A stretch of DNA of 64,000 nucleotides from Nemertoderma westbladi (lineage: Eukaryota > Animalia > Xenacoelomorpha): contig JAUCBJ010007832.1 of the NCBI GenBank assembly GCA_032718475.1, forward strand, positions 3,715-67,714, in the 5' to 3' direction. Below are positions 4,101 to 52,344 of this stretch, one piece after another. Position 1 is the first letter of the stretch, and each line of letters starts with the position of its first letter. Under the pieces are notes generated by a model. The model was not told the origin of the DNA. It saw only the letters and a program-made list of their open reading frames with translations, and searched no databases. The position numbers and the translations under genes were made by a program.

Positions 4101-7100
4101 CTGAGTATCGTGCCTAAAGGGTTAGTTTGCCCTTAGTTTTGGTATTTTTATGTTAACAAAAGGATATAGAGTTGAACTTGTTGTTTGTATACTATTCCAT
4201 GAACCCCGATGTTTTTCCTTCTATCATGATAAAATCATGATAAAAGACAAATATCAGATATATATATATAAAGATAAAGATAAAATCATGATATTCCTAT
4301 TAAATGATAAAATAAAATTAGGTGTTATTAAACTTGTTCATTTTTAAATTATTCATTTTGTAAGTTGTTAAATTTAAAATATATATAAATTTAATTTCTA
4401 ATTTGTTGTGGTTAAAAAGTAACCCCAATTGATGCGAACAGGCCGTGTTCATCAGAGCCGGGAAGTAAAGTTAACCCACCTGATCCGAACAGTAGGCCAC
4501 AAGTCGGGACGCGATCTTATACTGGTCTTCTTCGTTGAGTTCCTTTTTATACCACGCGATGGCGTTCGATCTCGCGGCCAAAAAGGAAATGAACGTTGAT
4601 TCACTGAGAGTCCCCTGAAGAACTCCTGCTCCATGCGTCGCGTCACCCGGACAATGATGAAACTTTACCGGCAATGATATAGCCTTTGCTGTACAATAAT
4701 AACAGTTTGTAATTATTCATGTTTTTAATATTGTTATGATACATAATTTATGTCTCCCTTTTTATATCTCATTATGCTTCATATTTTTCCAATTATTTCG
4801 CGCTGTATCGAGTGTAAGTGTCCAAATTTAATAAGCAAGTAATATAGCAGCTAATTTGTATTAAGTTATTTTTATTCTTAAATTGTTACTTTTTGCTCGA
4901 ATATACCCCAAAATCGGGAGAAAATGTAACCAGGATTGCATTGATTTTACTTTTTTTTCCCTGCGAAAAAAATAATATATTTTTGATGTATTTATTTAAA
5001 TTTTATTACATGTGTTGAAAGAGCATCGACGTAGAAAAGGTTTGCAAGTAATTTGAGCAAAATTCATGCATTGGTCTATTAATATTGGTTTACGTAGTTA
5101 AGCGGCTCTCAAGTTACGTAATAAATATTCGAGAATACTAAATAAATTATTTGACATTGAGTGAAGCAGCATCAGGAGTTGAAGATTACAGTAATTTGAA
5201 TCGCAGTAACTATGGTAGCAAATAGCAATGTAGTAAAAAAACTACAGTTCCATTTATTTTGTAACACTATATCGCTCAATCATTTATTATAGCAATGAGC
5301 AACAAAGAAGTACCAACACCAAATTTATGAATAAAATTACATATTACATGAGGAAAAAACGTATTACTTTTTTTCAATATTCTCTCTATTAACCTCGCTC
5401 GGTAAATAAAATGCCTCGAGAAAAGTTATTCTTTTTTCCCCATGTAATAAATTATTATTACCGGTATCTAATTTATTTAATATATTCGGGAACACTCAAA
5501 CCCTCCACCCTCAAACCTCAAACCCTTTTCTTTTTACGAAAAATAACGAAGCACTTATTGATTTGGGCAGTTATAAAAAAAATTGTTTTGGGCAGTTATA
5601 AATATTGTGATTGTTTAAAATAATAATAATATTAATATGTATTTATTCCAAAATTATAACATTACTCAACGCCGTTAGTATTAACAGCGAGTTGTTATTT
5701 AGTACTTGCAACTATTGAGGACATTACAGCATTGTATTGGCCTGTACATTTAGTATTGTATTTGGTGTTATCCGTTAAGTAATGTCCCCTTAGTGGACAT
5801 TATTTAACGCCGTCATTGGTTACCACGTAAACAATAGGTGAAAATTTGCCTGACAGCCAGATAGGCCAACTTCATTACCTACCGGTAGGCGGGGTATAGC
5901 TATTAATAACCAGTTGGGCTTAGCTAGATATTATTATAACATGGCTCTACACGCCACCATAAATATAAGCTAACTTATTTATAACATAATTTATGTCATT
6001 TTTAAATTTATTTATACAGCAACTAATTTAATTATAAATTAAATATAATATAATAAATTATTAATTAAAAGTTATTTACGGGTCCTTAACCCTTTAGCTT
6101 GTGCTGTAATAACTAATTACTGTACTCGTGTGTAAAGTAGCTCTTTACAGTTGTAAAAGCTTTTGCGTAATTAGCCGGTTATTTTCCCCGTAAAGTACTC
6201 TGTAGTTGGTTTACCAGGCATAAAAGGGCCGTGTCCTTACTGTACTGGTGTTTTAGAGGACATAAAAGTAATTTCTTCTGTATGTATACTTTAGAGGACA
6301 TAATCCGCAATTTCGTGACGCAATAAGCTGGATCCTCTTGAAAACAGTGTCACTACCATGACGACGGCTAACAGCTGATATTGCCACGTCGAACATTTCT
6401 TTGTTCTTTGTTCTCTCTTTGTTCGGTCGACCAATCAGAGCGTTTTTTGACTCTGTGTTGGAGGTTGGATACAGAAACTCAGTAATTCAGTGTATATGTT
6501 TTTGCCCAGAGCCTAAGAACACCGGCTTTTGGCACCTCCGTGTTTCAGTCTTTAGCTTAACATTAGTAGGCTTAATTATAGAACGTATATCTGTTATCTA
6601 AACATATCATGCATATCTTACTTAACATTACTGCTTTTGCTGTCGGTTATTCATTATATTTGTTGATGGAAGATTATATTTGGAATACTGATCAATAGTC
6701 AGACACCCCAATCTTCTTGATATACTAAAGGTTAGAGAGACCGGTTACATATAAACGATTGCGACTTATGTTAAGTGGTGTGAAGTGAATCTAATGCTAT
6801 TTTATAGGCCCTACATGTATTGTCTGTTATTCTCTTTGTATGTGACTAAAATTAGTGAAGGTCGGCAGATTGGTGTGCAGCATTGTGCAGCATTGTGTAT
6901 GATTGTGACTGATAACAAAGCATCTCCTAAAGAATGCGCCATATACGTGAATCTATAGCCATCTCATTGCGTCTGGTTTAAGTCATAACTCTGTTTACAT
7001 ATTTAGAGCGCCACGTCCTAAAGGAACTGTTAATATTTCCCGAAAGTGAATAATATTTGTCAGAAATTATATATTGCGATCAGTCGAATAATACAGTAGG

Positions 7101-10100
7101 CTTACACCATCAATCATTAAGCTTCCAAATTCAGTCTCCCGGGTATATCCAGCGGGTGAATGATTGCGCATAGACTGGCTTCGGCTAATGTAGTGTATCA
7201 AATACTCGTCATAGGCTAAAGACTATCTATCATCTAAAAGACATCCTAATTTGGCAGGTTAAACTGTCAAAGGTCTTAAAAGCGCAAACAATAACAGATA
7301 TTGCTTCTGGATTGCGGCGTAAGCAATCAAGTCGAAAGTACCGGTCGACCGGAAACCTGTAGGCCTGACTGCCTGATCACCCGAACCGGTACTTACAGTA
7401 TAGGTACAGCAGTATTATTCGATTTTGATAATTATATACCGGTAGGCCTTAATAATTAATCAGGGACTGCAGCCCTGGTTTTTTATTGAGATTTTACTTA
7501 TTTCTGTCAAGTTTTATTTGTTTGTAGGCCAGTATTGAGCAGAAGGCGTGTAAGCCTGCTCAGATTGTACAGATAATTTGTAGGCTTGACTGTTGTCTTA
7601 CTGTGTTAAGTCTGAACGGATTGCAGTGTGTGTAGAGCATCTGTCCGATAAAGTGCTAGTTAGGAAAGTAGGGGCTTCAAGTGCTGTGAGGTAAACCCCC
7701 GTGAAAGAATAAGTCGTAGTACTGGGTTAGAACGCATACTAACTAATCATTTCGGAGTCTGCATATACTGTAGTTTATTTAGGCTTGATAGTAGTCTGCC
7801 AGCGTTTGGTCTGTACTTTGTTTGTGTAGTCTGTACGGGTAGCGTATAATTTTATTTAGATAATTTGTAGGCTGGATAGTTGTCTGACTGTTGTTGGGTT
7901 TGAGGAAATTTCAGTGTGTGTAGAGCATCTGTCCGATAAAGTGCTAGTTGGGAACGTAGGGGCTTCAAGTGCTGTGAGGTAAACCCCCTGTGAAAGAATA
8001 AGTCGTACTACTAGGTTAGAACGCATACTAACTAACCATTTCGGAGTCTGCACATACCGTAGTTTGTTTAGGCCTGATAGTAGTCTGTCAGTATTTAGTC
8101 GGCATTTGTTTGAGTAATTTGTACGCGTAGCGTAATATTTATTATTCAGAGTGTATGCGATTATTCGCAACATTCATTCCCCAAGTTTATTCCTACAGTA
8201 ATTGTGTTTGTTATACATACCGTTATAGTTAAACTAACCCCGGTACTACATCAGGGCTGCTCGGCGTAGGTAAAGACTGGAGATTTTGTGCTTTGGTCAC
8301 TCCGGCAGATACCGTGGTTCTTTTAGCTGTTCAAGTATTTTTAACTACTGATTATTTGTTGTACAAGTACTTGTACCTAATTTAGGGTTTAGTGTACAGT
8401 GCTTTCCGAAAGCAATTAGTGTGTAGGCAGTATATTTGTGTTGTAAAGTGGTTAATAGGCACGTTGGTTCTGGTAGACCGCGGTAATTAATCTCTAGGTA
8501 GGAACACTCCGTGATACATAACGTAGTACCTATAGCGATACGGTTATAGGTTGTCAGGCGGTGGTATTTTCCTATCTGGACAACGCAGTATATTTACTAC
8601 TACTTATTATTTTCAAATACCGTAGTAACCTGTCCGTTGTAATAACCAGATATTCTAACCCTTTGTTAGGCTGGTTAGTAGACTTCTTGTAAAATTACCC
8701 CAAAAATTCGTATTTGTGTATTTGTAATTAAATTTTTGTGTTTATTTAGAGATTGTAATCTCAACCCGAATTGTACGTAATTTGTAGTATTAAGTAACTT
8801 AGGTAAATTAGAATTATTTGTTTTAGTGTCTAACAAGTAGCACTCCACTGAGAGCGTACAGGTTATGTGTAGTGACTCCCCCAGAAATAATAACATTTAT
8901 TTCAAATATTGACAAAACCCATTAAACGGGTATATATATATTATAAATCAACTCAAACGATTTATAAATAGTAGGCCTGCCATACAACAATTAGGTCTCA
9001 ATCACAGTTGGACTACTGCTTAAATAACGGTAATAAAGTAAGTTAAAGTAACCAAGTAACCCTTAAAATTCAGAAATTCAATTATTCTAAAATAATTGGT
9101 ATACCGGTATTTACAATAGGCTTATTATATTTATTTCTATAAATTTTAGGCTGAAATCATACCGGTATTCTGTAATTAATTCTAGTCTGTAATTATACTT
9201 ATATATATACATTATAAGTGTAAGCTGTATACCGGTATTCACGATAGGCCTATTATATATATATAAATTTAGGCTGAAATCATACCGGTATTCTGTAATT
9301 AATTCTAGTTACTAATAATACTTATATATACTATAAGCATACCGGTATTCTAATATTATATATATATCACGCTACACTGAGTAGCAGTATCGGTAATTAA
9401 TTACTAGGCTAGCAGTTAATGCTGAATTACTAGACTTGCTTAGACTGTAATATAGCAGTAGGCATTCAACTGTACAATCAAACATGTCTGACACAAAACA
9501 AACATTGTCAGATAGCCTCTTAGAAAGTGCTAGAATGAGTGTTAGACAGGGTCTTAAAAAGATCTGGGACTCAGCTAAGAGTATAGAGCGTCTGAGACCA
9601 AAGTCCAAGTCCCCTCCTACTGTAAGCAAGGTCATCCCTACAGTAGTAATATCAGAACCTAGGCTGGTCCAACATCGTAGGTCTATCATAGGCACTCGAG
9701 CTCAGGTCAAGCGGGACCAAGAAGCAGCGGAACAGCAACAACCCACGAGCCAAGAATTTATTCCTCAGCGGCCCGACAGCTCCAGTAGTGAGGATACTGT
9801 AGAGCTGACACCCGAGCGCGGAGCAAAGATGACGGATGCGGTTTATTCGGATCCCCTTCTCATCCTTCCTGCAGCCGTACTCACTAGGATATTGATCGCG
9901 GTGGAAGAACACCAGATCGATTGGGCGAGAAGTCAGCGATCAACTAAAGATAGTTATGCGGGATACACATGGGAAGAACTGAAGTCTATTGTCGAGTCGC
10001 AATGGAACTTCCCCGGACCCGGACTCCCGTTTGATTTATCAGAAGCTGCCTGGGAAGATATACACAGGATGGGAGTAACCAAGGAAACCGTCGATCCAGC

Positions 10101-33050: not shown

Positions 33051-34097
33051 TATACTTTATAATTATATAGTTTATATAGTTTAGTATACTACAGTATACT
33101 AAATATGTTATGTCAGTGTTTCACTGTCATTCCCGTAATTTATAGTCTTTTTCTAGTCTTTTCAAGGAAACTTATGAAAAATAAGGCTGGGGTTCTGGGG
33201 TTGATTAGGTACAGTTAGCCTAGGCTGAGTGTGAGTCGGTCATTGTGGAAAGGTACCAAGTGCGAACGGGTGGTAATCCTACCTGGAACTTTAGGCATTC
33301 AATGGGACCTCGTTGAATGAAAAATGGTTACCTTAGAAGTTATAAATTACCTTAAAAGTTGTAAAAATACATTTTCATGCTCGTAAATAATGAAAGGGTG
33401 TTTTTTTCATTTAGAAAGCCGTTTAAGTTCTATATTCATTATACCTTTCGAAGAGTCCGTTATTGGTTACGATAACAATTATGACAATAACATTACCAAT
33501 AATCTGCCTGCAGAATACATTGTTACTAAAGTAGAAAAGTTAATTGAGAGTTTTGATCATAATTTGAATCAAAATTTTCCCTCCAGTTCCTTTAACAAGA
33601 AAAATATAAGCATTTTAATTGTATTTAAACAACAAAAACTTTAAACGCATTTATCTCAAAATAACAATTTTTTTCGTTGGCCCTTTTTACTACGGTGACC
33701 ATCACCACTGATGTAGAGTACTCCATCCCAATAAATGGCTTAAGTTTACCAAAGCTGTATTAAATATGGTCGCGGTCGTAGGCCGGCCTAATTAGTTACA
33801 TACTGTATTTCAATGATATTTAAGATTGCATGATCTACTGTACGTAAAAATAAAGTAGAAAACAGGCAATACAGCAGTAATGCATGGCTTACTTTTCACT
33901 TTCGCAATTTATCAACCATTGGGCAAAATATTTTGAAATTATATTGGTTTCCTAAACAACATTTAGATTTTATAAATTTTTTCTGACAGTTAGAAACTTT
34001 TCACAGTGAACAATTTGAAAAAAAAAAACCCTGTGTACATATAATTCACCAAAATTTAATGAACAGGAAAGGTGTAATCGTGTTACATTAAGGAATT

Positions 34098-35201
34098 GAT
34101 TGTCAGCCAGTCGGACGGTGCCATATGTCTGGTGGTTGGTCGGGGATCCTAATTGTCAGCCAGTCGGGCCGTGCAATATGTCTGGTGGTTGGTCGGGGAT
34201 CCTAATTGTCAGCCAGTCGGGCGGTGAAATATGTCTGGTGGTTGGTCGGGGATCCTAATTGTCAGCCAGTCGGGCGGTGCAATATGTCTGGTGGTTGGTC
34301 GGGGATCCTAATTGTCAGCCAGTCGGGCCGTGCAATATGTCTGGTGGTTGGTCGGGGATCCTAATTGTCAGCCAGTCGGGCCGTGCAATATGTCTGGTGG
34401 TTGGTAGGGGATCCTAATTGTCAGCCAGTCGGGCGGTGCAATATGTCTGGTGGTTGGTCGGGGATCCTAATTGTCAGCCAGTCGGGCCTTGCAATATGTC
34501 TGGTGGTTGGTCCGGGGATCCTAATTGTCAGCCAGTCGGGCCGTGCAATATATCTGGTGGTTGGTAGGGGATCCTAATTGTCAGCCAGTCGGGCGGTGAA
34601 ATATGTCTGGTGGTTGGTCGGGGATCCTAATTGTCAGCCAGTCGGGCCGTGCAATATGTCTGTTGGTTGGTCGGGGATCCTAATTGTCAGCCAGTCGGGC
34701 CGTGCAATATGTCTGGTGGTTGGTCGGGGATCCTAATTGTCAGCCAGTCGGGCGGTGAAATATGTCTGGTGGTTGGTCGGGGATCCTAATTGTCAGCCAG
34801 TCGGGCCTTGCAATATGTCTGGTGGTTGGTCGGGGATCCTAATTGTCAGCCAGTCGGGCGGTGAAATATGTCTGGTGGTTGGTCGGGGATCCTAATTGTC
34901 AGCCAGTCGGGCGGTGCAATATGTCTGGTGGTTGGTCGGGGATCCTAATTGTCAGCCAGTCGGGCCGTGCAATATGTCTGGTGGTTGGTCGGGGATCCTA
35001 ATTGTCAGCCAGTCGGGCGGTGAAATATGTCTGGTGGTTGGTCGGGGATCCTAATTGTCAGCCAGTCGGGCGGTGCAATATGTCTGGTGGTTGGTCGGGG
35101 ATCCTAATTGTCAGCCAGTCGGGCCGTGCAATATGTCTGGTGGTTGGTCCGGGGATCCTAATTGTCAGCCAGTCGGGCCGTGCAATATGTCTGGTGGTTG
35201 G
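34098..35201. repeat. 53-bp GC-rich minisatellite (about 21 copies)
   Basis: Unit GGGGATCCTAATTGTCAGCCAGTCGGGCCGTGCAATATGTCTGGTGGTTGGTC; no unique spacers. Confidence 0.95.
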
Positions 35202-35757
35202 ACAAAACAGCATTCTGAGTCTGTACTGTGCTTCTCTGTTGGTAGATATATCTAAGTGTTTGAGTTTGATAAAGGCCTGTTGGCTGAAATATTACTCAGT
35301 AAACCACCATTTTTCTGTCACCTTAATTGGTCTCTGAATCTAAACCTAGTATATTATGCTTAACGCGGTGACAAGGGCACGTTCTCACTTACTAAACAAT
35401 TAAAGGGTTTAGTTTGTGTGATATGGTAAACTTAAATCTAATCACCCATCCAATGCCTCACACAACAGGAAGTATGGGTAGAATGTACTTATTGAATGAA
35501 CCACACCCTATTTCAAAAACAATTTATGTGACAGAGGTACTAAATATAATGACAAGTTTATCGATTGTGGTGCTAATGAGGCCCTTATCTGTCGGTCGTC
35601 AACAAGGGAAATAATTCATTTGAAAATAATCAAAAAACGCTTCCGCCTCCGCCTCCGCCTCCAGCAACTTTGTAAAATATTTTTTTGAAGCACTGGAATC
35701 GAATATTTACTCATTTACACCATGTCCCAGAATATAGTGTCGTAATCCAATGATACG

Positions 35758-36310: not shown

Positions 36311-37265
36311 TTATTTATCATTTAACAAAGTAATCTGATGAAGAATGTTTCGAGCCAGGTTGTTGTCAACAAACATTACCTCGGCATTCTCGCCAATTGA
36401 GATAACTGGAGGATCCTCTAGTATAGGCCTACATCCGTTATCTTCATCTCCAACTCCTGAAGTCTCAACAGCTGAAGCATCCAACGTAAACATTTGAGGA
36501 TCTGGAACCACAAGATTCAATCGTCTCATCTCTTCTTTGGCCTTTAACGTCTTAAGGCAAATTAAATACCGGTTTTCTTTTATCATTAACAACTGCTGTT
36601 GAACCAATTGAAGATCTAGAGCGGTCTCCGTTGATTTGACCCCGGCGGAACAAATGCGTTTGGCCGCAATAGATTCGGATGTGTGATCTATGATCGATCT
36701 ACCAGGATCGGTTCCTGTACTAACTGGAGCTGGAGGTATCGGAATATTTTCTTTTTCGCGAATATCATTACCAGTAGTGTTAGATCCACCACACTCCGCC
36801 CCAGATCCTATACCAAAAATTACATCGCCACTTGAACCGTGAATTATTTCGAACATCTTCATGACATAAACGGGGGGTTGCGGAACCGGTGGTCCACCTC
36901 CGGTTCGATGGTATTTTAGTGCATTAGCGTAAGTGCGAACAACTTGTTTTGTGTTTTCTATCTTTTTTATTAGTTCGTCTTTCGATCGAGGAGCCTCCAC
37001 CCCCGAAGCGTTAAAACGATTTAGCATGGCCTGCCATGCACGCACGCTCCTTCGTTTCCGGAGTTATGTTTTTCGTTTTATTAAAAGAACCACTAACGAG
37101 GCCATGGTACTTCTCGTACACTGTCACGAGCTGACAGGCGTCATTCACTGTCCAATTTTTCGACCTTTTTCGGCTCTTCTGCTTTGACTCAGCAATATTA
37201 GGCCTAATAGTACAACCGGTGTCCGTATCGTTAAAATAAATATTTCTGTCTGCATCCATCTCCAT
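36311..37265 (-). pseudogene. PIF/Harbinger Myb/SANT-like DNA-binding protein gene, frameshifted
   Basis: RKRSKNWTVNDACQLV...K(E)RAWQAM..RFNA..PRSKDELIKKIEN...RTGGGPP; ORFs 37011..37280 and 36311..37045 are joined if a 4-bp duplication (GCAC, about 37040) is removed. Confidence 0.75.
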
Positions 37266-37586: not shown

Positions 37587-38860
37587 TATATCACTTTTCT
37601 TTAGGAATACAGTTGTTGCATAACATAGCGCAATAGGAGTGATACATTGTAGTGATATTAATATGAATCCGTCAAGACAAGTTTATTGAACCCAATTTCA
37701 TTGATGTAAATAAAATAAGTTATACAGTATTTATCTTCAAGACGGCGTGAAATACTCCGTGAAATCGAGTAAACTCATTGATGGGCTGTGTTAAAAGATG
37801 TCACCCTGAGGATGGTCTACTGTTAAAAGCACCCCAGGGTGGTCTTTCCTTTTGATATGTTTGTATTTTCAAATGAAACAAATTTAATCAAGTTATAACA
37901 CATCAAGCTAATCGTTCTAATTTATAAGCCAAACAGAAATAACCAAAACAATAAATCTAACTTAGCTTCCTAAGCTACTTAATATGAGTGCGGGTGACGT
38001 AGCACTCGGCGTTCACTTTCCACAGAGAAATACAAGCTGTTTGCCGGGCGGAACAATGTCGAAATTGAGAATATTTTAATATGCAAAAGGTGGGGTATTA
38101 ATTTCCCTAATGTCGAAACTTTAACCTTGCGCTGATTTAACCCAGCGATATCACTACTGCGCTACCCTAACTACCGGTACTGCTGTAAACCTGCTGACCC
38201 GCTACTTTCAAATAACCGCCTAGCGTCGAATATCCTAAATAGAATAAATATAAATATTGCCAATAATAAGAAATAATCAAGAGTCAGTTCAAGCAGTAGT
38301 CATATTCAAAAGTCATAAATCAAGCAACAGTAACCGCGATATCCAGGGCTGGATTTTCGACCAACCAGTGAGCGGAACTTAATTTGGCGATTATTAAAGA
38401 ACATAATCGCCTCAACTTAATTTGGCGATTATTAAAAGCACAATTTAGGCGTTATTTTAGCACAATTTAGGCGTTATTTTAGCACAAACATTGATTTATA
38501 GAGAAATGTAAATTAAATTAGCACAAATATTAATAGATGTTACGAAACGTCAAATTAATTTTTTGTTTTATAGAAGTTTGTCACCGCAAATTAATATACT
38601 AAGGTTTTATTATAAAAATTACATAAGTAGGACTACATACTGTATAAATCGGTTGAATATAATTGAACTTGTGTATTTTATTTTCCCTATCTAATTACGG
38701 TTGTACACCAATACAACTTATCTAATTATTATACTGTATGATGGGTTGTTTTAGTACACAACGCCATATATCGTAACAGGCTGTGGTTGCGATTAATCAT
38801 ATATTATTAATTTTATTTTAATTAAAAAAAATTATATATATATAAATTTTAATTTTATTT

Positions 38861-40240
38861 ATTGTTGCTTGTTGTTGCTCATTGTTGCTCGTTGTTGCTC
38901 ATTGTTGCTCATTGTTGCTCATTTTTGCTCGTTGTTGCTCAAGGTTGTTGTTCGTTGTTGCTCATTGTTGCTCGTTGTTGATCGTTGTTGCTCATTGCTG
39001 TACGTTGATGATCGTTGTTGCTCATTGTTGCTCATTGTTGCTCATTGTTGCTCGTTGTTGCTCATTGTTGCTTGTTGTTGTTCATTGTTGCTCGTTGTTG
39101 TTCATTGTTGCTCGTTCTTGCTCATCGTTGCACGTTGTTGATCGTTGTTGCTCATTGTTGCTCGTTGTTGCTCATTGTTGCTCGTTGTTGCTCATTGTTG
39201 CTAGTTGTTGCAAATTGTTGTTCATTGTTGCTCGTTGTGTCTCATTGTTTGTCGTTGTTGCTCATTTTGCTAATTGTTGATCGTTGTTGCTTATTGTGGC
39301 TCATTGTTGTTCGTTGTGTCTCATTGTTTGTTGTTGTTGCTCATTTTGATAATTATTGATCGTTATTGCTCATTGTCGCCATTGTTGGTCGTTGTTGCTC
39401 ATTGTTGCTTCTTGTTGCTCGTTGTTGTTCATTGTTGCTCGTTGTTGCTCATTGATGCACGTTGTTGATCGTTGTTGCTCATTGTTGCTCGTTGTTGCTC
39501 ATTGTTGCTTGTTGTTGCTCATTGTTGCTCGTTGTTGCTCATTGTTGCTTGTTGTTGCTCGTTGTTGCTCGTTGTTGTTCATTGTTGCTCGTTCTGGCTC
39601 ATTGTTGCTCATTGTTGCTCATTGTTGCTCGTTGTTGCTCAAGGTTGTTGTTCGTTGTTGCTCGTTGTTGATCGTTGTTGCTCATTGTTGCTCATTGTTG
39701 CTTGTTGTTGCTCATTGTTGCTCGTTGTAGCGCATTGTTGCTCGTTGTTGCACATTGTTGTTCATTGTTGCTCATTGTTGCTCGTTGTTGCTCGTTGTTG
39801 ATCGTTGTTGCTCATTGTTGCACGTTGTTGCACGTTGTTGATCGTTGTTGCTCATTGTTGCTCGTTGTTGCTCATTGTTGCTTGTTGTTGCTCATTGTTG
39901 CTCGTTGTTGCTCACTGTTGCTTGTTGTTGCTCGTTGTTGCTCGTTGTTGTTCATTGTTGCTCGTTCTTGCTCATTGTTGCTCATTGTTGCTAATTTTTG
40001 CTCGTTGTTGCTCAAGGTTGTTGTTCGTTGTTGCTCATTGTTGCTCGTTGTTGATCGTTGTTGATCGTTGTTGCTCATTGCTGTACGTTCTTAATCGTTG
40101 TTGCTCATTGTTGCTCATTTTTGCTCGTTGTTGCTCGTTGTTGCTCGTTGTTGTTCATTGTTTCTCGTTCTTGCTCATTGTTGCTCATTGCTGCTCATTT
40201 TTGCTCGTTGTTGCTCAAAGTTGTTGTTCATTGTTGCTCG
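38861..40240. repeat. 10-bp (RTTGTTGCTC)n satellite, left part, split by LTR element 2
   Basis: Direct reading; continues at 52345-53213. Confidence 0.95.
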
Positions 40241-41499
40241 TGTAAAAGCTTCTGTGGGATATAACTGGCCCTTTTGCTTCGCAATCCAGTTTCCCCCCAG
40301 GCGCTGGAATACTCTAAAAAAGGTTCTCTAATTGTATATATATTCCCCTCGCCCGCAAGGTACCGTTACAGGTGTTTTAACGGACATAAAAGTCATTCTG
40401 CTATATACGTGTTTTAGCGGACATGGTAAGGCAAAAACCTGCAATGCACCAAATACCTTTCACAGCTTAGCCGTGATGATTCATATTACGACATCTAACA
40501 GCTGGTTGCTGACATGGAAACAGCCATTGGACGCAGGGTTCTTTGTTGGCTTGAGCCAATCAGAGCGATTTTTCCTGTCGACGTGTAGCTTTTCGGCCGA
40601 TCATAAGGAGAGTGTTCAGTCTTACTGTTTTTTCTTGTTACTTTATTGTTGTTGCTATCTAGGCCAGTAACAACGGCTCTAGAGTCAATTCATTTCATAC
40701 TTTAGAAGAAACATTAGTAGGCTCAAGATTATAGAGCGTATAACTGTTATCGGTTCATAACAACTCACATATCGGTCCATATCAGTACATTGTCATATCA
40801 TATCTTAACCTACCGTCTTAATAGTTTGCTGTTGTTTGGTTGAATATTATTTGGAGAACATTTATAAAGAACCCAAATTTCCCAATTTTCTTGATACACT
40901 ACAGGTTAGAGAGACGGGTTATATATAGCGATTGCGACTTATATTATTGTGGTTTGTAGTGAATTTAATGCTATTTGATAAGCACTACATGAATCCGTTG
41001 CTGTTCTCTTTATATATGATAAAATTCATTGACGGTCGGCAAATTAGTGAGCAGTATTGTGTGTTACCGGTAGTGTGCATGATTGTGACTGATAACTAAG
41101 CATTTCCTAAAGAATGCGCCTCATACGTGAATCATAAGCCTTACCGACTTACCGTTGTGATTAGTATAAGTCATATCTCGGTTTACTTAGATAGAGCGCC
41201 ACGTCCTAAAGGAACTGTTAATATTTCCCGAAAGTAAATAATATTAGTCAGAAATTAATTATTAACGATCAATCGAATAATACAGTACAGTAAGCTTACA
41301 CTGCAATAATAATCTAAGCCCTCAGAATCCAGTCTCCCGGGAATATCCAGTGGGTGAATGGACGCGCACTAGGCTGGCTTCTGCTAATGTTGTGTTTATT
41401 GGTATTAAATATTTGTCATCTTCTAAAGTATATTTATAAACCAAAAGACATATAAATTTTGGCAGGTTAAACTGCTAAAGGTCTTCAAAAGCGCGTACA
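40241..41499 (+). repeat. 5' LTR of element 2
   Basis: Direct repeat of 51086-52344; I saw only about 2 substitutions by eye. Confidence 0.95.
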
Positions 41500-41510
41500 A
41501 TAACAGTTAT
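41500..41510 (+). promoter_or_regulatory. Non-tRNA primer-binding site ATAACAGTTAT, complementary to LTR 40740-40750
   Basis: Abuts the LTR end; exact reverse complement of ATAACTGTTAT in its own LTR. Confidence 0.75.
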
Positions 41511-43762
41511 TGACTTTATTGCAGTAAGCAATAAAGTTGAAAGTACCGGTCAACCGGTAAACCTGAACCGGTACTTCTGTAGGTCAGTAGGCCCAACTGC
41601 CAGAACCGGTACTGCTGTAGGTCCGTAGGTCCAACTGCCAGAACCGGTACTTCTGTAGGTCCGTAGGCCCAACTGTCCTAACCGGTACTTCCAGTATAAG
41701 TACATTAGTATTATTCGATTTTGATTATTGTATACCGGTAGGTCTTAGTATTTAATCAGGGACGGCCGCCCTGGTTTTTATTGAGATTTTACTTATTTCT
41801 GTCGGTTTTATTTACATGTAAGTTAATATTGAGCTGAAGACGTGTAAGTCTGCTCAGATTGTTCAGATAATTGTAGGCCGGACTGTTGTCAGATTGTTGT
41901 TGGGTTTGGAGAGATTACGGCGTGTGTGGAGTTTGTCCGATAGAGTGCCAGTTAGTAAGTTGGGGCAGCCATTGCTGTAAGGTCAATCCCCTCTTAAAGA
42001 ATAAGTCGTACTACCGTGTTAGAACGCATACTAACTAACAATTTTGGAATCTGCACATACTGTAGTTTATTTAGGCTTGACAGTATTCTGCCAGCGCTTT
42101 GGCCTGTGTTTGTTTGTGTGGTCTGTTCAGGTACCGTAATAGTTATTACTCAGATATTTTGTAGGCTGGATTGTTGTCTAGCTATTATTAGGTCTGAAGA
42201 GATTGCTGCTTGTGTAGAGTTTGTCTGATAAAGTGCCAGTTAGTAAGTTGGGGCAGTCATAACTGTAAGGTCAATCCCCTCTTAAAGAATAAGTCGTACT
42301 ACCGTGTTAGAATGCATACTAACTAACCGTTTTGGAATCTGCACATACAGTAGTTTATTTAGGCTTGGTGGTAGTCTGCCAGCGTTTGGTTTGTATTTTG
42401 TTTGAGTATTCTGTACGGGTAGCGTAATATTTATTATTCAGAGTTTATGCGATTATTCGCAACATTCATGTCCCCAAGTTTATTCCTACAGTAATTGTGC
42501 TTGTTACACATACCGTTATAGTTAAATTAACCCCGGTACTACACGGGCTGCTTGGCGTAGGACAAGACTGGTGATTTTGTGCACCGGTCACTCCAGCAGA
42601 TGCCGTGGTTCTTTTAACTGTTCAAGTATATTTAACTACTGATTATTTGTTGTACCAGTATTGTACCTAATTTAGGGTTTAGTGTACAGTGCTTTCCGAA
42701 GTAATTAGTGTGTAGGCAGTATATTTGTGTTGTAAAGTGGTTAATAGGCACGCTGGATCTGGTAGTCCGCGGTAATTAACTTCTAGGTAGGAACACTCCG
42801 TGATACATAACGTAGTACCTATAGCGATACGGTTATAGGTCGTCAGGCGGTGGTATTTTCCTATCTGGACAACGCAGTGTATTTACTACTACTTATTATT
42901 TTCAAATACCGTAGTACCCTGTCCGTTGTAATAACCAGAATTCTAACCCTTTGTTAGACTGGTTTGTAGACTTCCTGTAAAATTACCCTAAAAATTCGTA
43001 CGTAATATTTTGTTGTGTTTAATTAGAGATTTAATCTCACCCGTATCGTAAGTAATTTGTAGTATTAAGTAACTTAGGTAAATTAGAATTATCTGTTTTA
43101 GTGTCCCATAAATAGCACTTCACTGAGAGCGCACAGCTTCTGTGTAGTGACCCCCCAGAAATAATAACATTTATTTCAAATATTGACAAAACCCTTTTAA
43201 ACGGGTATATATATATTATAAATCAACTCAAACGATTTATAAATAGTAGGCCTGCCATACAACAACTAGGTCTCAAAATCAGTTGGACTACTGCTTAAAT
43301 AACGGTAACAAAGTAAGTTAAAGTAACCAAGTAACCCTAAAATATTCAGAAATTCAATTATTCTAAAAATAATTGACATACCGGTATTTACCATAGGCTT
43401 ATTATATTTATTTCTATAAATTTGAGCTGAAATCATACTGGTATTCTGTAATTAATTCTAGTTCATAATTATACTTATATATACTATAAGTGTAAGCTGC
43501 ATACCGGTATTCACGATAGGCCTATTATATATTTATATATATTTGTGCTAAAATTATATACCGGTACTCTGTGACAAATCTAGTCTGTAATAATACTTAT
43601 ATATATACTATAAGCATACCGGTATTCTAATATATTATATATATATCACGCTACACTGAGTAGCAGTATCGGTAATTAATTGTTAGGCTAACAGTGATAC
43701 TGAATTACTAGACTTACTTTAACTGTATTTATAGCCGTAGGCATTCAACTGTGTAAACAAAC

Positions 43763-46700
43763 ATGTCAGACGCAACCCAATCACTGTCAGATAGTCTCTT
43801 AGAAAGTGTTAGAATGAGTATTAGACTTAGACAGCGTATTAAAAGGATCTGTGACCAAGATAAAAGTATAGAACATCCCAGATCCAAGTCTAAGTCACCT
43901 ACTATTGTAAAAAAGGCCATCCCTACAGTAGTAGTGTCAGACCCTAGGCTAGTAGAACAACGTAGGTCTATCATCAGCACTCGGGCCCAAGTCAAGCGGG
44001 ATCAAGAAGCAGCTGTCAAACCGCAGCAACATCCTAGCCAAGAACCTAGTTCTCAGCGGCCCGATAGCTCCGGTGGTTCGGATACTGCTGAGCGGACACC
44101 CGAACGCGGAGCGAAGATGGCGGATACGGTTTATGATGAGCGGCCAACCTATGAAGAATCAACCGACGCCACTTCTTCTCAAGTGGAAAGCGAAGTGGAA
44201 AGCGAAGTGGAAAGCGAATTAACAGCAGCAGAGAAGCCGCAAACTAGAGATGCCATTGACATCTATCTGTCAGACTATCAGCGATTCCTAGGAGACGAAG
44301 AGTTGAGGAGACGACTGTCTGGACTTCGCCCTAATAGTGAAGGAACCAAGCTTGTGTTGGACGCAATCGATGCGGAAATGTTAGCTGCAGAACAAGCTAA
44401 ATTTGATGAAAAACTCCGCCTCGTTAGAGTCCAAGAAGAACAAATAAAGAAAAAACAGATAGAGGACCGAAAGGCAGCAGCAGTAAAGGCGGCAGAAGCA
44501 GAAGCAGCAAAGGCGGCGGCAGAAGTAGAAGCAGAAAGAAAGGCAGCGGAAGTAGAAGCAAAAGGAAAGGCAGCGGTAGCAGAAGCAGAAAGAAAGGCGG
44601 CAGCGGCAATGGCAAAGGCAGTGGCAGAAGCAGAACGGAGAGCGTCTGAGGAGACTACCCAACTGGAGTTGGAAAATCTGCAAGAGACGCAAGACTACAT
44701 AAATAAAAAGCTAACTGCTAGTCGAATGCAGATGATGAGACGATCTACTCCAAAACGCCAGGGATACACGTCATCGGAGGAAAGCGAAACCACCGATCCT
44801 GAAGGCGGAAGAAATAGATCTCGTCTAAGCAGGCGTAGAAAAACATCTCACCGTCATAAACTGCCTGATTTGCCCCCAGCTGTCAGAAGACAACTAGCTA
44901 GCACAGACTTAGGTAGTACAGGACCCACAGACCAAATTATTCAGGTCACAAGACTCCCTACAATAGTTGATGAGCCTGAAATAATTAGGCCTGTCGTTCC
45001 CAAAGCCACTCCTGTGCTAGAGACCCCTGTACTTCCAGAGCTTAACTCTAAATTCCCTCTACACAGTACTACACTGTCTGTACCCGGTAGAACAGTCCAT
45101 GAGAATATCCCTGTCCTGGAAGCTGAGAGAGAAATCAAAGATTTGTCTCCCGTCGTCCCGCGTCAGCCCGCTACAATGTTGGCGACTCCCGCTTCGGCGG
45201 TTGAGTGGGTAGAGGAGGGACGACGGGGGATGAATCTCCTGCTCGGACAGATGCAGGAGACTGTCCACCAATTTAAGGGAACAGTAAGGGAAGGTAGGGC
45301 CGAATTGCAAGAAGTGCAGCAAAGTATCGCGCTAGAACGCGACAAATTAGTCAACATACCAAAGGGTATACCCATACCCCCTGTAACATTGTGTCAACCT
45401 GTTAGGTCTGAAGTATTACATGCGCAAGGTGTGGAGCCTACACGCATCTATACTGCTAGTGAAGTAGAAACCCCTATAGCAAACCCTATTAAGGGTGATT
45501 ATAGACCTGTTGTTAATGATGTTCCCTATAGACCTGATAATGATCCGAGAAATTTATATACCGATAATTCGATATTAAATAACACGATGGCCCAAGAAAG
45601 CTTTACGCGTCAGATGGCTAGAACAGAAGCCCGCCAAGCGGTCAAAGTGGGAGAGATCGTTAAATTCAATGGAGATGAGATGAAATGGCTACCTTTCAAT
45701 GAATATTACAAAGATAGCATACAAAACTCTGTACTATCTAACGGAGAGAAACTTAGGTTCCTCATCAAGTGCTTGGAAGGACCTCCCAGGTTAATGGCGT
45801 TAAAGTTTATTGGACATCCAGATGGATTAAGACAAGTTTGGGATACATTAAACATCAGGTATGGTAACAAAGATAACATAGCTAAGTATTTGTATGCAAA
45901 ATTAGTAGCCCCCCGACACTTCCTTAGTAGCGGGATTATAGAGTTTTCCGATGAAATTCAGGAAATCTGTAGACAATTGGACTGGTTAGGTAAGTCTCAT
46001 GAATATCAGAGTTCCATGGTTATTGGAGCAGTAGTCTCTACTTTACCCAAGGGTGGAGTATGTACACGTTGGGACAAGAAAGTGTTGTACATGAATGAAC
46101 AACAACGACGAAGCCCTACCATGACTGATCTCATGTCCTTCTTAGATGGTGAAGTAAAACTACAACTCATCAAGCAGTCCAGAGAGAAAACATCGGAAAA
46201 TAAGGTAAGTGAGAAACCTGCTTCTAGGAGAAGAGTAACACCGGTGTGTTACACTGACGACGGCGAAAGCCAAGCTTCTCAAGAAGAAGACAGCGGGAAA
46301 GACACAGCAAAATCTTACTATGACAACAAGACCTATAAAGACGTAAGTAAATACAAGTCTCGAATCAGTGACAGGAGAGAACAGGTAACAACAACTCCTC
46401 CTACGTCTCCTAAGAGAATGCACGGAAAAAAGCCCGAAGAAAGAACGAGAGTGCATAACGTTACCCAAGGTAAGGTGAGTGATATCAAACCAAAATGTGC
46501 GCTGTGCGACAGGCCCCACCGTTTGAGTGCGTGTGCTGAATTTCTAAAGAAATCCCCTGTAGACAGACGTACAGTCCTGTGGAATAAGCGGTTATGCTAT
46601 AATTGCCTCAGATCAGGACACCAACGGCGAACCTGTTACTCCGACGTAAAGTGTGCAAAGTGTGGCGCGAAACATCACATCTTGTTACACAGTGAGTTCG

Positions 46701-47929
46701 AACGAGACAACCCGAGTCAGGTAAGTGAGCCCGAACTACATGTCCAATTCAGTGATGTAAATGACACTGATCAAGAGTCTGAGATGGAAGGATTCTATAC
46801 TGACGAATTCTCCGACGCCAACGAATCCTGTTATCTAATCAATACCGCAGTGTATCGAGCACTTACTTACGAAAAGGACACCGACAATGAGTTCCCCCCA
46901 ACTACCTTTGACAGACAACCATCTTGGAAAGCTCCAACTTCCAACGTAGGAATCAGAAAATTTCCTGTAGTGCAGGTAAGAGTTCACGGTCCTAACAAAA
47001 GTTACATAGTGAACGCCCTCCTTGACTCCGGCAGCACAGGAACATTCATCGATCAAGAACTAGCCGAAGATATCTTTGCTGGACAACCCAAATTCCGGAC
47101 TAAATTGAATATGTCAGGAATTATGCAGGTTTGGAAATCTACCCTAACGGCAGATTACTATGTAGGTGTGTTGTCCACCCCCCAGGATAAATTAGGAGCA
47201 CAAGGTATAAGGTCGGTAAAAATGGTGGCTATAAAGAACTTCGCTACTACCCAAGCAGACCTTTATAATTGGGACGAGGATGAGAGCATCCAACATCTTA
47301 AGATACCTCGATTCCAGACAGATTATCCTGGAGTGCAAATACTCATCGGCCAAAACGCGCATGAGGCGCTCGAGACATTGGAGAAACGGCCTGCTCAACC
47401 GCAGCCACTGCAAACCTATGCGGTAAGAACTAGAGTAGGTTGGTACTTCACTGGCCCTTCCCGTAGAACTCTCAAAGAGAGATTACCTCAACAACAGGTA
47501 TACCAAGTAAAGGAATGGGAAGTGGAGAGCAGTGATGTGGACGATCCAACTGAGGGAACACCATACTCCTCAGATAATGACGATATTAACTCCAATGTAG
47601 ATCAATGGAGACATTGCCTTGGGACGATTAATCCAGCCGACATCGCTTCCAGAGGAGCAACTCCTCAAGAACTGATAGATACTCCAGGCTGGTTAGGTGG
47701 ATCCGACTTCTTAAGTAAAGAAGAAGAAGAATGGCCTCCTCATCTTACCCCGGCGGAGATTAGACAGGCCAAGGGAGCGGAGAAAATAATACAACAACTC
47801 AATCCCCCAGCTGGTCGTTTATGTTTACTGGAAAGAGACCGAAAACTGTCCGGAAACTATGGAAGGCAAGATACTCTTCCTACGACCACTTCCCTAATCC
47901 GACAAATATCTAGGGACTCCATAACGTAA
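43763..47929 (+). CDS. BEL/Pao Gag-protease polyprotein (copy 2), intact ORF of 1388 aa with vestigial RNase H and integrase tails
   Basis: DUF1759-like Gag, three zinc knuckles, LLDSGS protease, then QWRHCLGTINPADIASRG..W.GGSDFL (end of Pao RNase H) and PAGRLCLLE (integrase C-terminal tail-like). Confidence 0.9.
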   Translation: MSDATQSLSDSLLESVRMSIRLRQRIKRICDQDKSIEHPRSKSKSPTIVKKAIPTVVVSDPRLVEQRRSIISTRAQVKRDQEAAVKPQQHPSQEPSSQRPDSSGGSDTAERTPERGAKMADTVYDERPTYEESTDATSSQVESEVESEVESELTAAEKPQTRDAIDIYLSDYQRFLGDEELRRRLSGLRPNSEGTKLVLDAIDAEMLAAEQAKFDEKLRLVRVQEEQIKKKQIEDRKAAAVKAAEAEAAKAAAEVEAERKAAEVEAKGKAAVAEAERKAAAAMAKAVAEAERRASEETTQLELENLQETQDYINKKLTASRMQMMRRSTPKRQGYTSSEESETTDPEGGRNRSRLSRRRKTSHRHKLPDLPPAVRRQLASTDLGSTGPTDQIIQVTRLPTIVDEPEIIRPVVPKATPVLETPVLPELNSKFPLHSTTLSVPGRTVHENIPVLEAEREIKDLSPVVPRQPATMLATPASAVEWVEEGRRGMNLLLGQMQETVHQFKGTVREGRAELQEVQQSIALERDKLVNIPKGIPIPPVTLCQPVRSEVLHAQGVEPTRIYTASEVETPIANPIKGDYRPVVNDVPYRPDNDPRNLYTDNSILNNTMAQESFTRQMARTEARQAVKVGEIVKFNGDEMKWLPFNEYYKDSIQNSVLSNGEKLRFLIKCLEGPPRLMALKFIGHPDGLRQVWDTLNIRYGNKDNIAKYLYAKLVAPRHFLSSGIIEFSDEIQEICRQLDWLGKSHEYQSSMVIGAVVSTLPKGGVCTRWDKKVLYMNEQQRRSPTMTDLMSFLDGEVKLQLIKQSREKTSENKVSEKPASRRRVTPVCYTDDGESQASQEEDSGKDTAKSYYDNKTYKDVSKYKSRISDRREQVTTTPPTSPKRMHGKKPEERTRVHNVTQGKVSDIKPKCALCDRPHRLSACAEFLKKSPVDRRTVLWNKRLCYNCLRSGHQRRTCYSDVKCAKCGAKHHILLHSEFERDNPSQVSEPELHVQFSDVNDTDQESEMEGFYTDEFSDANESCYLINTAVYRALTYEKDTDNEFPPTTFDRQPSWKAPTSNVGIRKFPVVQVRVHGPNKSYIVNALLDSGSTGTFIDQELAEDIFAGQPKFRTKLNMSGIMQVWKSTLTADYYVGVLSTPQDKLGAQGIRSVKMVAIKNFATTQADLYNWDEDESIQHLKIPRFQTDYPGVQILIGQNAHEALETLEKRPAQPQPLQTYAVRTRVGWYFTGPSRRTLKERLPQQQVYQVKEWEVESSDVDDPTEGTPYSSDNDDINSNVDQWRHCLGTINPADIASRGATPQELIDTPGWLGGSDFLSKEEEEWPPHLTPAEIRQAKGAEKIIQQLNPPAGRLCLLERDRKLSGNYGRQDTLPTTTSLIRQISRDSIT

Positions 47930-49558
47930 TAACATATGGAGTGGGCGTGTGACTATATCATTTTATATTTGTTTTTATTTTATATTTATGTATGTATTAT
48001 TATGTAATTTTATTATAATCGTTTTCTTTAATTTTATTTAGTAGAATGTTATTTTAGGGATTATTTAGTAGATTAGTGCAATATATTAGTGTTTATTACG
48101 TACGTAATTACTTATAATATATTTAGTGCGACGGCGAGAAATAATTATTTTTTCTCTTTCCTTACTGTCCGTATCATATTGTAAATACGTGACTACAGTA
48201 AGATGAGATGTCCGTACTTAGTAAAGTACAATAAAGCCACTACTATATTCAAGTATTATTGGTAGGCAGAGTATTAGGAATGCAAAGTTCAGATCCTCGT
48301 GTCTCGGCTAAACCAAGCTCTGGGTAGACCTTGGAAACGACTTGCCTCTTCACACTGACATTGCTTCGTGCGATATTGCTCTTCTACCTTATATTAAATA
48401 ATACATATAGTAGCGTGATGTCCCTCTAACAGTAGCGTAAAACGCAAATAAATCTGTTAAACCTTTTGACCATCTGTAATTCTAGTCGATTAAGATATCG
48501 CGGCACCCACCGATATACTTGAAAGACAAATTCTAGAATCAGTGGTTACCGTCCCCAGACAAGTTCTGGAATAAATCGGTGCCCATCTTAAATATTAATT
48601 TAATATTTATTAAAATCTGTAAAATTCAGATCCGATAACAATTCTAGTCAATTAAGATATCGCAGCACTTACCGATACTCTTTTAAAGGACAAATTTCAT
48701 AGAATTAAGGATCCTATGCCCCCAGACCTGCTCTGGAATCAAATTGTGTCAATTTTAACATCAAATAATAAAATTCACGGGAATAAATTTAAATTCATAT
48801 TTTAAATGAATTTCATAAATTGTCATTTTGTACAATTTATAACATTCCCAAAATTCCATTAATTAATAGATCATGGGAGCGGAGATTCATCCTATTGAGT
48901 GTATTAGAGTGCGAGAATCTCCAACATATAGTCAATAGCCGATAAAATTAATAAAATCATGCATAAAGAGGATATTGACAATTAAAGAATTATTATTAAA
49001 TAGCATCCCAGATCTGTATGCATGAGAATTACCCTAATTCTACCGCTAGCATTCCATAATGTCACCATAGCAACACCCACGCTAGAATTAGAAGCAAGTT
49101 AAAAGAACAATAGAAAGCTTGTCCCATTGCATAGCATAGAGAATATAGCACACTGTTAGTATCCAAGGATACACAGTAATAACGTGACATTCTGGAAGGC
49201 ACTGACTAACGGACAAATGGCCTGTATGTGTACAATTGGTGACAGTTGTGTGGAATTTGTGCGTTTGTAGGTGAATGTTACTGCTAAGGTGTGTTTACAG
49301 TAGCTAGTCGCAATTGTGAAAGTAACCCAACTCTCCTATAGAAAGAACCTAAAGTGGATTCAAGCCTTTGGGACGGACAGTGGAGTGACTTGTGCCGGTT
49401 ATCGTTGTCGTACTGTTGCTACATGTTGGCGTAAACACCGCGACAACGGTACATCGGCGCTGAGGATCCCACTGTCCGGGGGCAAAGAGAGGTAGGCAGC
49501 GACGTCCGCTCGCCTAAACATAAACTCATTTCGATATTAACAAACTCAGATAGCAGAT

Positions 49559-51007
49559 ATGACGGAGTTGATAGAAGATGATCTTGGTATCAAGGAGCGA
49601 TATACTCTACCTTTGCAAGCATTTGTGGATAGCTTAATACGCGGTGAAACCGATCCAACCATTACGGAGGACAATGGTCGTTATATCGAACCGCCGACGT
49701 CCCAAGAGCAACTTACGCGTGAATTGGACTATCGAAAATTCACCGCTCGCTATACGCATCGTGATAATACGTATATGGACTTCCTAACTACCGGCCATCC
49801 TATCGATTTACATGATACGGACGATGTAGACACCGAAAGGAAAATGGTTCTATTTAAATATCATACCCAGCGGAGTCGTAACGATAAACCGAAAATAGAT
49901 CACGAAAATTCTATTCGTAACAGACTGGGAAGACGAACCAATATGCCTAGAATCTGAGGAGATTCAGCCTATTGCGCCCGGAACAGCGACAACGATTACA
50001 TCCTAGAATGGTATCAAGGTCCACAGTGTCTCACTGCGTACGATTATCGCCATGCCAACTATGTTTCTCGGCAACGTTGTCGGTTATGCGCATCGAGAGA
50101 CCATGTTACGCCCATGGACACAAACGTCCGCTGTTCCTATTTCCACGAACAACCGGCGATGAAAATTTATTGCGCGTATTGCAGATTAAATAATTTGCAC
50201 GTTTTTGCGGTTTGCCCTCAATTTATGACTCAACGTCACCATTGTCAACTAAAGGGACATGCCAGTTTCGATTGCCCTTTTAATCACGATTTGGAAAGCG
50301 TAGATGAAATGATCACACTACGTTACATCAGAGCTTGGGAAGCGAACGCTGATTTACATTGTGATTCGCGCCATCGCTATTATCCCGGACATGCTTACGA
50401 AGGAGTTTATGCGTTCCATCCTTATCTATTCGCTTCGGTTGAACAGAAATCACGCATATCAAGTTACGAGCTACTGAAGCGCGTTGGAGAATGTATTTCA
50501 ACCAAATTCGTACGCAAATTTCTCAGGAGTGTTAATCCTAGCGACCTTCATTCCTATAACTTAATCAATTATATCCGTCAGGATCCGGACTATGGAGACT
50601 TGTTTGTTAACTCACACCCCGAGTTACAGGAAGTATATCGACGGCCTTACGAATACCGAGCCCGCGAACGCGAGTTGGAAAGGACCATTAAACCCCGGAG
50701 GTTTCTAACTGCCTATGGTCCACCCACGGCCCTCGTTCAGACCACTCGTAAAGGACCCGTAAGAGCGGCTGTCTTGAAACGAGCTCTCAAGGCCGTTAGA
50801 CCCCTCTCCCCGGACGTTGATGTCAATCAACCCGGTACTTCGACTGGCGGATACACCGACCAAAATCCTACACCCTCTGATGCAATCATATTGCACCCTT
50901 CACCCCGGAGTTATAGCCCTCCTTGTAAAGTGGCTCGCCCCAAAGAGAAAAGGACTCTGGCTAGCTTTAAGAAACTGCGTAAACGCCGTCCGCGCAAGAA
51001 AGACTAA
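49559..51007 (+). CDS. Accessory 3' ORF (about 482 codons, one internal TGA at 49955-49957); Cys/His zinc-finger-like middle and basic NLS-like C-terminus
   Basis: ORFs 49559..49957 and 50114..51007 are in the same frame and the gap is open; motifs CRLC-x4-H-x9-C, CAYC-x5-H-x4-C, C-x4-H-x4-C; ends KKLRKRRPRKKD. Confidence 0.65.
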
Positions 51008-51085
51008 CTGTTTAGAGTATTTACGTATATTAGAAACTGTGATTTTGTATATTTTATAGACTCAAATCCCATTTTCTGGGAGCGG

Positions 51086-52344
51086 TGTAAAAGCTTCTGT
51101 GGGATATAACTGGCCCTTTTGCTTCGCAATCCAGTTTCCCCCCAGGCGCTGGAATACTCTAAAAAAGGTTCTCTAATTGTATATATATTCCCCTCGCCCG
51201 CAAGGTACCGTTACAGGTGTTTTAACGGACATAAAAGTCATTCTGCTATATACGTGTTTTAGCGGACATGGTAAGGCAAAAACCTGCAATGCACCAAATA
51301 CCTTTCACAGCTTAGCCGTGATGATTCATATTACGACATCTAACAGCTGGTTGCTGACATGGAAACAGCCATTGGACGCAGGGTTCTTTGTTGGCTTGAG
51401 CCAATCAGAGCGATTTTTCCTGTCGACGTGTAGCTTTTCGGCCGATCATAAGGAGAGTGTTCAGTCTTACTGTTTTTTCTTGTTACTTTATTGTTGTTGC
51501 TATCTAGGCCAGTAACAACGGCTCTAGAGTCAATTCATTTCATACTTTAGAAGAAACATTAGTAGGCTCAAGATTATAGAGCGTATAACTGTTATCGGTT
51601 CATAACAACTCACATATCGGTCCATATCAGTACATTGTCATATCATATCTTAACCTACCGTCTTAATAGTTTGCTGTTGTTTGGTTGAATATTATTTGGA
51701 GAACATTTATAAAGAACCCAAATTTCCCAATTTTCTTGATACACTACAGGTTAGAGAGACGGGTTATATATAGCGATTGCGACTTATATTATTGTGGTTT
51801 GTAGTGAATTTAATGCTATTTGATAAGCACTACATGAATCCGTTGCTGTTCTCTTTATATATGATAAAATTCATTGACGGTCGGCAAATTAGTGAGCAGT
51901 ATTGTGTGTTACCGGTAGTGTGCATGATTGTGACTGATAACTAAGCATTTCCTAAAGAATGCGCCTCATACGTGAATCATAAGCCTTACCGACTTACCGT
52001 TGTGATTAGTATAAGTCATATCTCGGTTTACTTAGATAGAGCGCCACGTCCTAAAGGAACTGTTAATATTTCCCGAAAGTAAATAATATTAGTCAGAAAT
52101 TAATTATTAACGATCAATCGAATAATACAGTACAGTAAGCTTACACTGCAATAATAATCTAAGCCCTCAGAATCCAGTCTCCCGGGAACATCCAGCGGGT
52201 GAATGGACGCGCACTAGGCTGGCTTCTGCTAATGTTGTGTTTATTGGTATTAAATATTTGTCATCTTCTAAAGTATATTTATAAACCAAAAGACATATAA
52301 ATTTTGGCAGGTTAAACTGCTAAAGGTCTTCAAAAGCGCGTACA
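51086..52344 (+). repeat. 3' LTR of element 2
   Basis: Direct repeat of 40241-41499. Confidence 0.95.

Follow-up and report, generated by a model that had tools for sequence, protein, structure and literature searches.

The analysed window, i.e. the whole stretch of 64,000 nt of DNA, contains two LTR elements, both complete and on the + strand: A (6152-18515) and B (40241-52344). A 5-bp target duplication flanks A as it does B, a purine tract precedes the 3′ LTR in both, and the LTR lengths (1139 and 1259 bp) are those given in the initial annotation.

6152..7290, + strand: 5′ LTR of A, 1139 bp, TG..CA, five differences from the 3′ LTR
9451-14130: long frame of A corresponding to that of B
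17377-18515, + strand: 3′ LTR of A
40236-40240 and 52345-52349: 5-bp target duplication of B
40241..41499, + strand: 5′ LTR of B, 1259 bp, TG..CA, two differences from the 3′ LTR
43757..47929, + strand: BEL/Pao Gag (DUF1759), zinc knuckles and protease in a 1390-codon open frame of B
51078..51085, + strand: purine-rich PPT of B, adjoining the 3′ LTR
51086..52344, + strand: 3′ LTR of B

The LTR pairs within each element are 99.6-99.8% identical, which together with the target duplications implies that the priming of A and B worked recently. All five differences between the LTRs of A have an adenine in the 5′ copy, four of them being A/G.

Coding capacity, class and abundance of A and B

Both long frames carry the DUF1759 domain (PF03564; E 3e-12 and 4e-12), accompanied by zinc knuckles and a weak protease match, and of their 73 homologues 68 contain the Pao domain PF05380 and the other five PF03564. 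When eight full polyproteins were aligned by tblastn, Gag and protease matched, ca. 520 residues were skipped, a short piece was matched again and nothing beyond it; correspondingly, the frame of B jumps 3′ of the protease to a short piece matching ca. 520 residues further along the full polyproteins. RT and integrase were not found in A or B by this search, and the gap together with the lack of any match after the short piece indicates that both are gone. The junction of the RT deletion is identical in A and B, and the Gag-protease part has evolved under purifying selection (925 codons compared between A and B, dN/dS 0.19, pS 0.35). From these sequence comparisons the A/B lineage appears to be a long-lived, non-autonomous one that would supply its own capsid and whose RT deletion is common to both subfamilies.

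A and B are young non-autonomous BEL/Pao LTR retrotransposons. They share with the BEL/Pao group (Belpaoviridae/Semotivirus) the related Gag-protease with DUF1759, zinc knuckles and an aspartic protease, the TG..CA LTRs, the 5-bp target-site duplication, the PPT and the metazoan host. Unlike typical members, they are devoid of RT and integrase, which rules out an autonomous status, and possess an extra Cys/His-rich 3′ frame. Membership in the Tf1/sushi group (Ty3/gypsy chromoviruses) is excluded because the proteins are those of BEL/Pao; the similarity is at most one of working. The extra 3′ frame or frames of B (49541-51007) contain zinc-knuckle-like motifs and a basic C-terminus and are fragmented in A. 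The 349-aa frame had no Pfam match at the cut-off, and its best score against the Atlas was 0.85 (zf-CCHC clusters, all below 0.9), which is a lead only.

The family is present in high copy number in sequencing runs of one organism, as judged from the contigs of four runs: 13,366 matching contigs were counted in X1, which is possibly the window's own sample, and 3,222 in X3. Further LTR copies of the family were not found within the 64-kb window. Scans with exact LTR motifs gave no match in metagenome contigs and none in viral contigs, and none of the 84 pattern matches of the BEL/Pao profile in viral contigs was confirmed.

B sits in a 10-bp satellite (about 38700-40240 and from 52345), and other tandem arrays have units of 45 bp (2052-3385) and 53 bp (33993-35300). 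An intronless PRMT5 frame of 661 codons (58064-60049), whose stop is followed by an AATAAA at a distance of 74 nt, has 52-61% identity with animal proteins (about 55% with PRMT5 of many animal phyla), every named match among the best 120 being animal. The window also holds an RT fragment (31425-32036, − strand), unmatched by the BEL/Pao queries and belonging to another retroelement, and a weak Myb/SANT-like frame (36311-37063, − strand).

The 11-mer/PBS duplex and neighbouring structures

The sequence following the 5′ LTR offers no tRNA-type PBS, as the 17 nt adjoining the LTR end are free of TGG in both A and B (TGG is absent from the first 25 nt after the LTR of B and in A is found only at +18), and tRNA genes were not detected within the 64-kb window. 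Instead, beginning with the first base after the 5′ LTR, 11 nt of both elements are complementary to a segment of their own LTR, exclusively in Watson-Crick pairs and with no G-U.

6587..6597, + strand: 11-mer of A
7291..7301, + strand: PBS of A
40710..40751, + strand: conserved 42-nt block containing the 11-mer, aligned to A 6559-6598
40740..40750, + strand: 11-mer of B, candidate self-primer, perfect complement of the PBS of B
41500..41510, + strand: PBS of B, directly 3′ of the terminal CA of the LTR

The 11-mer and the PBS are separated by 704 nt in A and 760 nt in B, which agrees with the ca. 700 and 760 nt annotated initially; the LTR of Tf1 is shorter than this loop. A complement of at least 11 nt at PBS offsets 0-5 arose in 18 (A) and 24 (B) of 5000 dinucleotide-shuffled LTRs, i.e. 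in about 0.4% per element. These chance figures must not be multiplied since the two 11-mers are homologous: the 42-nt block around them aligns with 37 identities, three mismatches and two gaps (88% identical, E 2e-8), the sequence around it being otherwise diverged between A and B. As the internal regions are also 86-87% identical, the description of one element as an independent replicate of the other had to be abandoned.

The duplex nevertheless appears to be maintained rather than fortuitous, as originally suggested. One position differs between A and B on each strand of the 11 bp, and the two are partners, so that the pairing is perfect in both elements and kept with different bases, as had been noticed before. 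Given one difference per side, such a partner match is expected by chance with P of about 1/33, covariation being testable on the two sequences A and B only and therefore resting, for the primer duplex, on a single change. Survival of all 11 pairs has a probability of about 2e-4 at pS 0.35 and of 0.03 at 15% divergence. The duplex is AU-rich with an energy of −10 to −11 kcal/mol. Among the 40 of 233 variant rows listed none falls into the 11-mer or the PBS, which carries no weight either way.

A wider comparison of helices covered ca. 850 nt, with the conserved block at one end and the leader at the other. The structured elements of this region are listed below.

41362..41367, + strand: U5 stem, 5′ strand, 6 bp with two compensatory changes (A 7164-7169)
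41491..41496, + strand: U5 stem, 3′ strand (A 7282-7287), its end 3 nt short of the PBS
41458..41479, + strand: U5 hairpin of 8 bp, kept in A and B via two one-sided changes
41512..41538, + strand: leader hairpin just 3′ of the PBS, 11 bp in B

Of the 89 ungapped helices of at least 6 bp common to A and B only two are both stable and changed on two sides, namely the 11-bp primer duplex and the 6-bp U5 stem. No helix equal to either of them was obtained in 60 local column shuffles, weaker ones averaging 0.28 per shuffle, and slid controls gave 25-50% pairing compared to 100%; a pair-shuffle control (134/500) is powerless with two rows. The best partner site of the U5 stem is homologous in A and B, its energy alone being ordinary (58 and 98 of 300 shuffles), and RNAalifold recovers this stem as well as the 8-bp U5 hairpin. 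The leader hairpin is represented in A by its 6-bp upper part only (7310-7328). For the bases after the PBS, no homologous LTR partner common to A and B was found. The folding z-score is −3.2 for B and +0.4 for A.

Several observations concern the sequence enclosing the PBS. A pairing of U5 with the leader (41271-41283/41708-41720) is strong in B (2/500 shuffles), while the best site in A lies elsewhere. In a slightly wider frame (41245-41283/41708-41727) a possible long-range pairing with 13 perfect pairs in B and 11 in A at the homologous place would enclose the PBS and form a pseudoknot with the primer duplex. The LTR block most conserved between A and B is 41177-41240, which is also the deepest bin across the sequencing runs. 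Within the 2.2-kb leader, B has expanded short tandem repeats and, in common with A, a ca. 290-bp duplication (41541-41700, 41859-42442).

The initial annotation had further proposed that pairing extends 5′ of the 11-mer with a conserved register of the internal loop.

40731..40736, + strand: 5′ strand of the proposed second helix, partner 41514-41519, at chance level and outcompeted in B

Beyond a 3×3 loop a helix of 5-6 bp can indeed be drawn in both elements, but its extra energy is equalled in 845 (B) and 613 (A) of 3000 shuffles of the 15 nt 5′ of the 11-mer, i.e. in 20-28% of cases. In B its pairing probability is 0.00 because the hairpin 41512-41538 takes the same bases, the fold with the local hairpin being favoured by 8 kcal/mol (−23.6 versus −15.6 kcal/mol). 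In A the extension does fold (P 0.75-0.98) beside the shorter hairpin, albeit with two single bulges in place of the 3×3 loop. The leader bases concerned align poorly between A and B, so that the “kept register” may compare non-homologous positions; neither the register nor the extended pairing is borne out, and the second helix was rejected as evidence.

Related BEL/Pao loci and alternative primers

A PBS without a tRNA site but with complementarity to the own LTR makes self-priming likely. On balance, we favour the view that A and B prime reverse transcription in the manner of Tf1 from their own LTR RNA, whose start would coincide with the 11-mer or lie just before it. The BEL/Pao group is generally described as tRNA-primed, and the layout of related loci bears on this assignment. 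A profile built from 12 homologues identified 79 BEL/Pao loci in metagenome contigs, nine of which, with the LTR end fixed by both repeats, constitute the comparison set; the other 70 were left out due to flanks that are too short, a missing repeat pair or a cut-off 3′ copy, and an exploratory scan of nine of them was uninformative. A self-complementary PBS is present in five of the nine loci. In four autonomous BEL/Pao elements (L009, L028, L073, L074) the PBS complements of 11-15 nt exist only across canonical GT-AG LTR introns of 76-186 nt with strong donors (shuffle control: 0, 0, 0 and 2 of 200), and L073 has a TATA box ca. 30 nt before the primer. The fifth locus (L036) has a contiguous 11-nt complement (1/300 shuffles). 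L039 has a tRNA-type (TGG) site, and three of the nine relatives have neither a self-complement nor a TGG site. The LTR bounds of L010 and L049 are doubtful.

The relatives with splice-joined primers raise the question of whether the primer of A and B is also built by splicing.

40746..40904, + strand: possible GT-AG intron or intron relic (A 6593-6730)

Removal of this intron would create a 10-nt primer complementary to positions 2-11 of the PBS; the 11-nt match of the unspliced RNA would then either only resemble this design or have replaced it later. The splice-joint test that served for the relatives detects the 10-nt joint in both A and B, across the most variable LTR segment: the interior of the candidate intron has 67 identities over 108 and 129 nt and its last 24 nt are conserved (21/24 identical). 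Moreover, contigs of other copies also end at 40751. However, the donors are weak (3-4/9 relative to the consensus, compared to 6-8/9 in the relatives), the supposed acceptor scores higher as a donor (7/9) and reads AAG in A, and the unspliced match is longer (11 versus 10 nt). The required hexamer is found twice per LTR, which makes the joint alone weak evidence. We therefore regard a splice-built primer in A and B as unlikely. The strong donor-like site at 40902-40910 (A 6728-6736; 7/9) is itself conserved and could splice to an acceptor in the leader or the 3′ frame.

A second alternative concerns the position at which the RNA starts.

40556..40565, + strand: CCAATCAGAG box, promoter-like, conserved in A (6431)
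40616..40620, + strand: TCAGT, initiator-like, candidate upstream start, aligned with A 6487, ca. 60 nt after the CCAAT box

The CCAAT (CCAATCAGAG) box, which we take to be of the NF-Y type, and the TCAGT are conserved 100-185 nt upstream of the 11-mer, and conservation reaches 30 nt 5′ of the 11-mer itself; a TATA box is not found 30 nt before the 11-mer in A or B. Judged by these motifs, the RNA may start near 40618, 100-120 nt upstream of the 11-mer. The earlier suggestion that the primer is not simply the first 11 nt of the mRNA thus keeps the support of the upstream CCAAT box, the TCAGT and the conserved 30 nt, while the helix on which it had been founded fails. In nested folds the duplex forms with a probability of 0.74-0.92 if the RNA starts at the 11-mer. 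It tolerates upstream starts at a distance of up to ca. 15 nt in A and 25-30 nt in B, whereas from 45 nt its probability is 0; it is also lost in folds reaching 300 nt into the leader. In all these nested folds the competing helices would be pseudoknots.

A long primer of ca. 110-130 nt would accordingly start near the TCAGT at 40616, or be trimmed by cis- or trans-splicing near 40705, and pair beyond the 11-mer. Besides the conserved promoter-like motifs, it can draw on acceptor-like sites just 5′ of the conserved block (40705 in B, 6555 in A), on pairing of the block's 5′ part with U5 at homologous sites (14/1000 shuffles in B, 143/1000 in A) and on the extension folding in A. Nevertheless, the extension is at chance level and displaced in B, the duplex is lost in folds starting at the TCAGT, and plus-strand copying of such a primer would presumably leave an unpaired 3′ flap or a PBS match longer than 11 nt; on these grounds a long primer is rather improbable.

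The duplex might, thirdly, be a structure serving packaging or translation, or a chance match that was inherited, with priming performed by an internal host-tRNA fragment or another RNA. Half-tRNA priming is known in Copia lineages, according to PMC6317226. In addition, the PBS of B is a near-palindrome, the duplex contains one compensatory change only, and further 11-13 nt complements between LTR and leader are present at 7412 and 41708. Against this stand the location of the match exactly at the LTR boundary, its length identical to that in Tf1, the lack of G-U pairs and the same layout in five of the nine relatives, and we likewise consider it to have little probability.

Finally, the 3′ LTR copy might serve as primer if the RNA were cleaved and polyadenylated directly after the 11-mer, so that the 3′ end of the RNA would pair with the PBS: in both LTRs ATTATA, a rare poly(A) signal variant, begins 22 nt ahead of the 11-mer's end, and AATAAA occurs in neither, but no U/GU-rich stretch directly follows the 11-mer, the host gene in the window has an AATAAA 74 nt beyond its stop and the RNA would need to lose its poly(A) tail, making this very unlikely. 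The absence of AATAAA leaves R and U5 without delimitation.

Proposed mechanism and relation to known systems

For priming from the own LTR RNA we propose the following scenario. The RNA would start at the 11-mer or within the ca. 30 conserved nt before it, and its 5′ end would fold back across the R/U5 region of ca. 750 nt to the PBS, with the U5 stem and the hairpins holding it in place. An autonomous helper element might then provide the RT/RNase H that cuts after 40750, and the new 3′-OH would be extended into the LTR end. Since A and B lack an RT and yet inserted recently, a helper presumably has to cut and copy, and the combination of a non-autonomous status with a high copy number suggests that primer cleavage works in trans. 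During plus-strand synthesis the primer would be copied back into the PBS, which would keep primer and PBS matched and predicts a perfect Watson-Crick match that does not exceed 11 nt and stops at the edge of the LTR, as seen. The compensatory change in the duplex may hence reflect templating rather than selection alone.

Self-priming of this kind is known from Tf1. There, the PBS pairs with bases 1-11 of the RNA, which RNase H cleaves between bases 11 and 12 (PMC7175516), the PBS starts with ATAAC and about half of the cDNA retains a single-stranded PBS copy (PMC11042837), and a “pretzel” of three duplexes is required, in whose outer ones bases adjacent to the PBS pair with a part of the LTR lying downstream of the primer (bioRxiv 10.1101/2022.12.06.519325). 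As in Tf1/Tf2 of Schizosaccharomyces pombe, Tj1 and Tf1/sushi, A and B have no tRNA site but an 11-nt PBS that follows the terminal CA and matches the own LTR; their PBS likewise starts with ATAAC, as does that of Tf1 (PMC11042837). The U5 stem before the PBS resembles one PBS-adjacent arm of the pretzel. Of the pretzel's duplexes, the central one and the one before the PBS covary in A and B, whereas the duplex after the PBS was not found and a local hairpin takes its place. Unlike Tf1, A and B are BEL/Pao elements of an animal host with 700-760 nt between primer and PBS and no RT of their own.

Predicted self-primers in plants, i.e. Tcn1 (Ty3/gypsy) and TAR/Houba/Osr-1 (Ty1/copia), were identified by a complement of at least 10 nt starting 0-5 nt after the LTR (PMC6317226). 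A and B show the same feature in different hosts and a different superfamily. The plant predictions imply that self-priming had more than one origin, which makes its occurrence here less surprising. A report on self-priming in BEL/Pao was not found in the literature within reach of the search, which extended neither to the original BEL/Pao descriptions nor to the Levin papers, and a keyword look-up in PMC554778, PMC3118150 and PMC2774666 returned nothing on priming.

More tentatively, and with somewhat less confidence than in the self-priming of A and B as such, we envisage tRNA-free self-priming as a main initiation route in part of BEL/Pao, with splice-built and ready-made primers as interconvertible forms. 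A and B would then represent an RT-less parasite with a ready-made primer, an intron relic, a loop of ca. 750 nt and a cut made in trans. The mechanism itself is not new; what A and B contribute is a further family together with a U5 stem that covaries. For Tf1, self-primed reverse transcription has been demonstrated, and it is predicted in some gypsy and copia lineages. If true in BEL/Pao, it would extend to a third LTR superfamily, be relevant to whether priming by tRNA is the ancestral state or was repeatedly lost, and explain why PBS finders based on tRNAs miss such elements.
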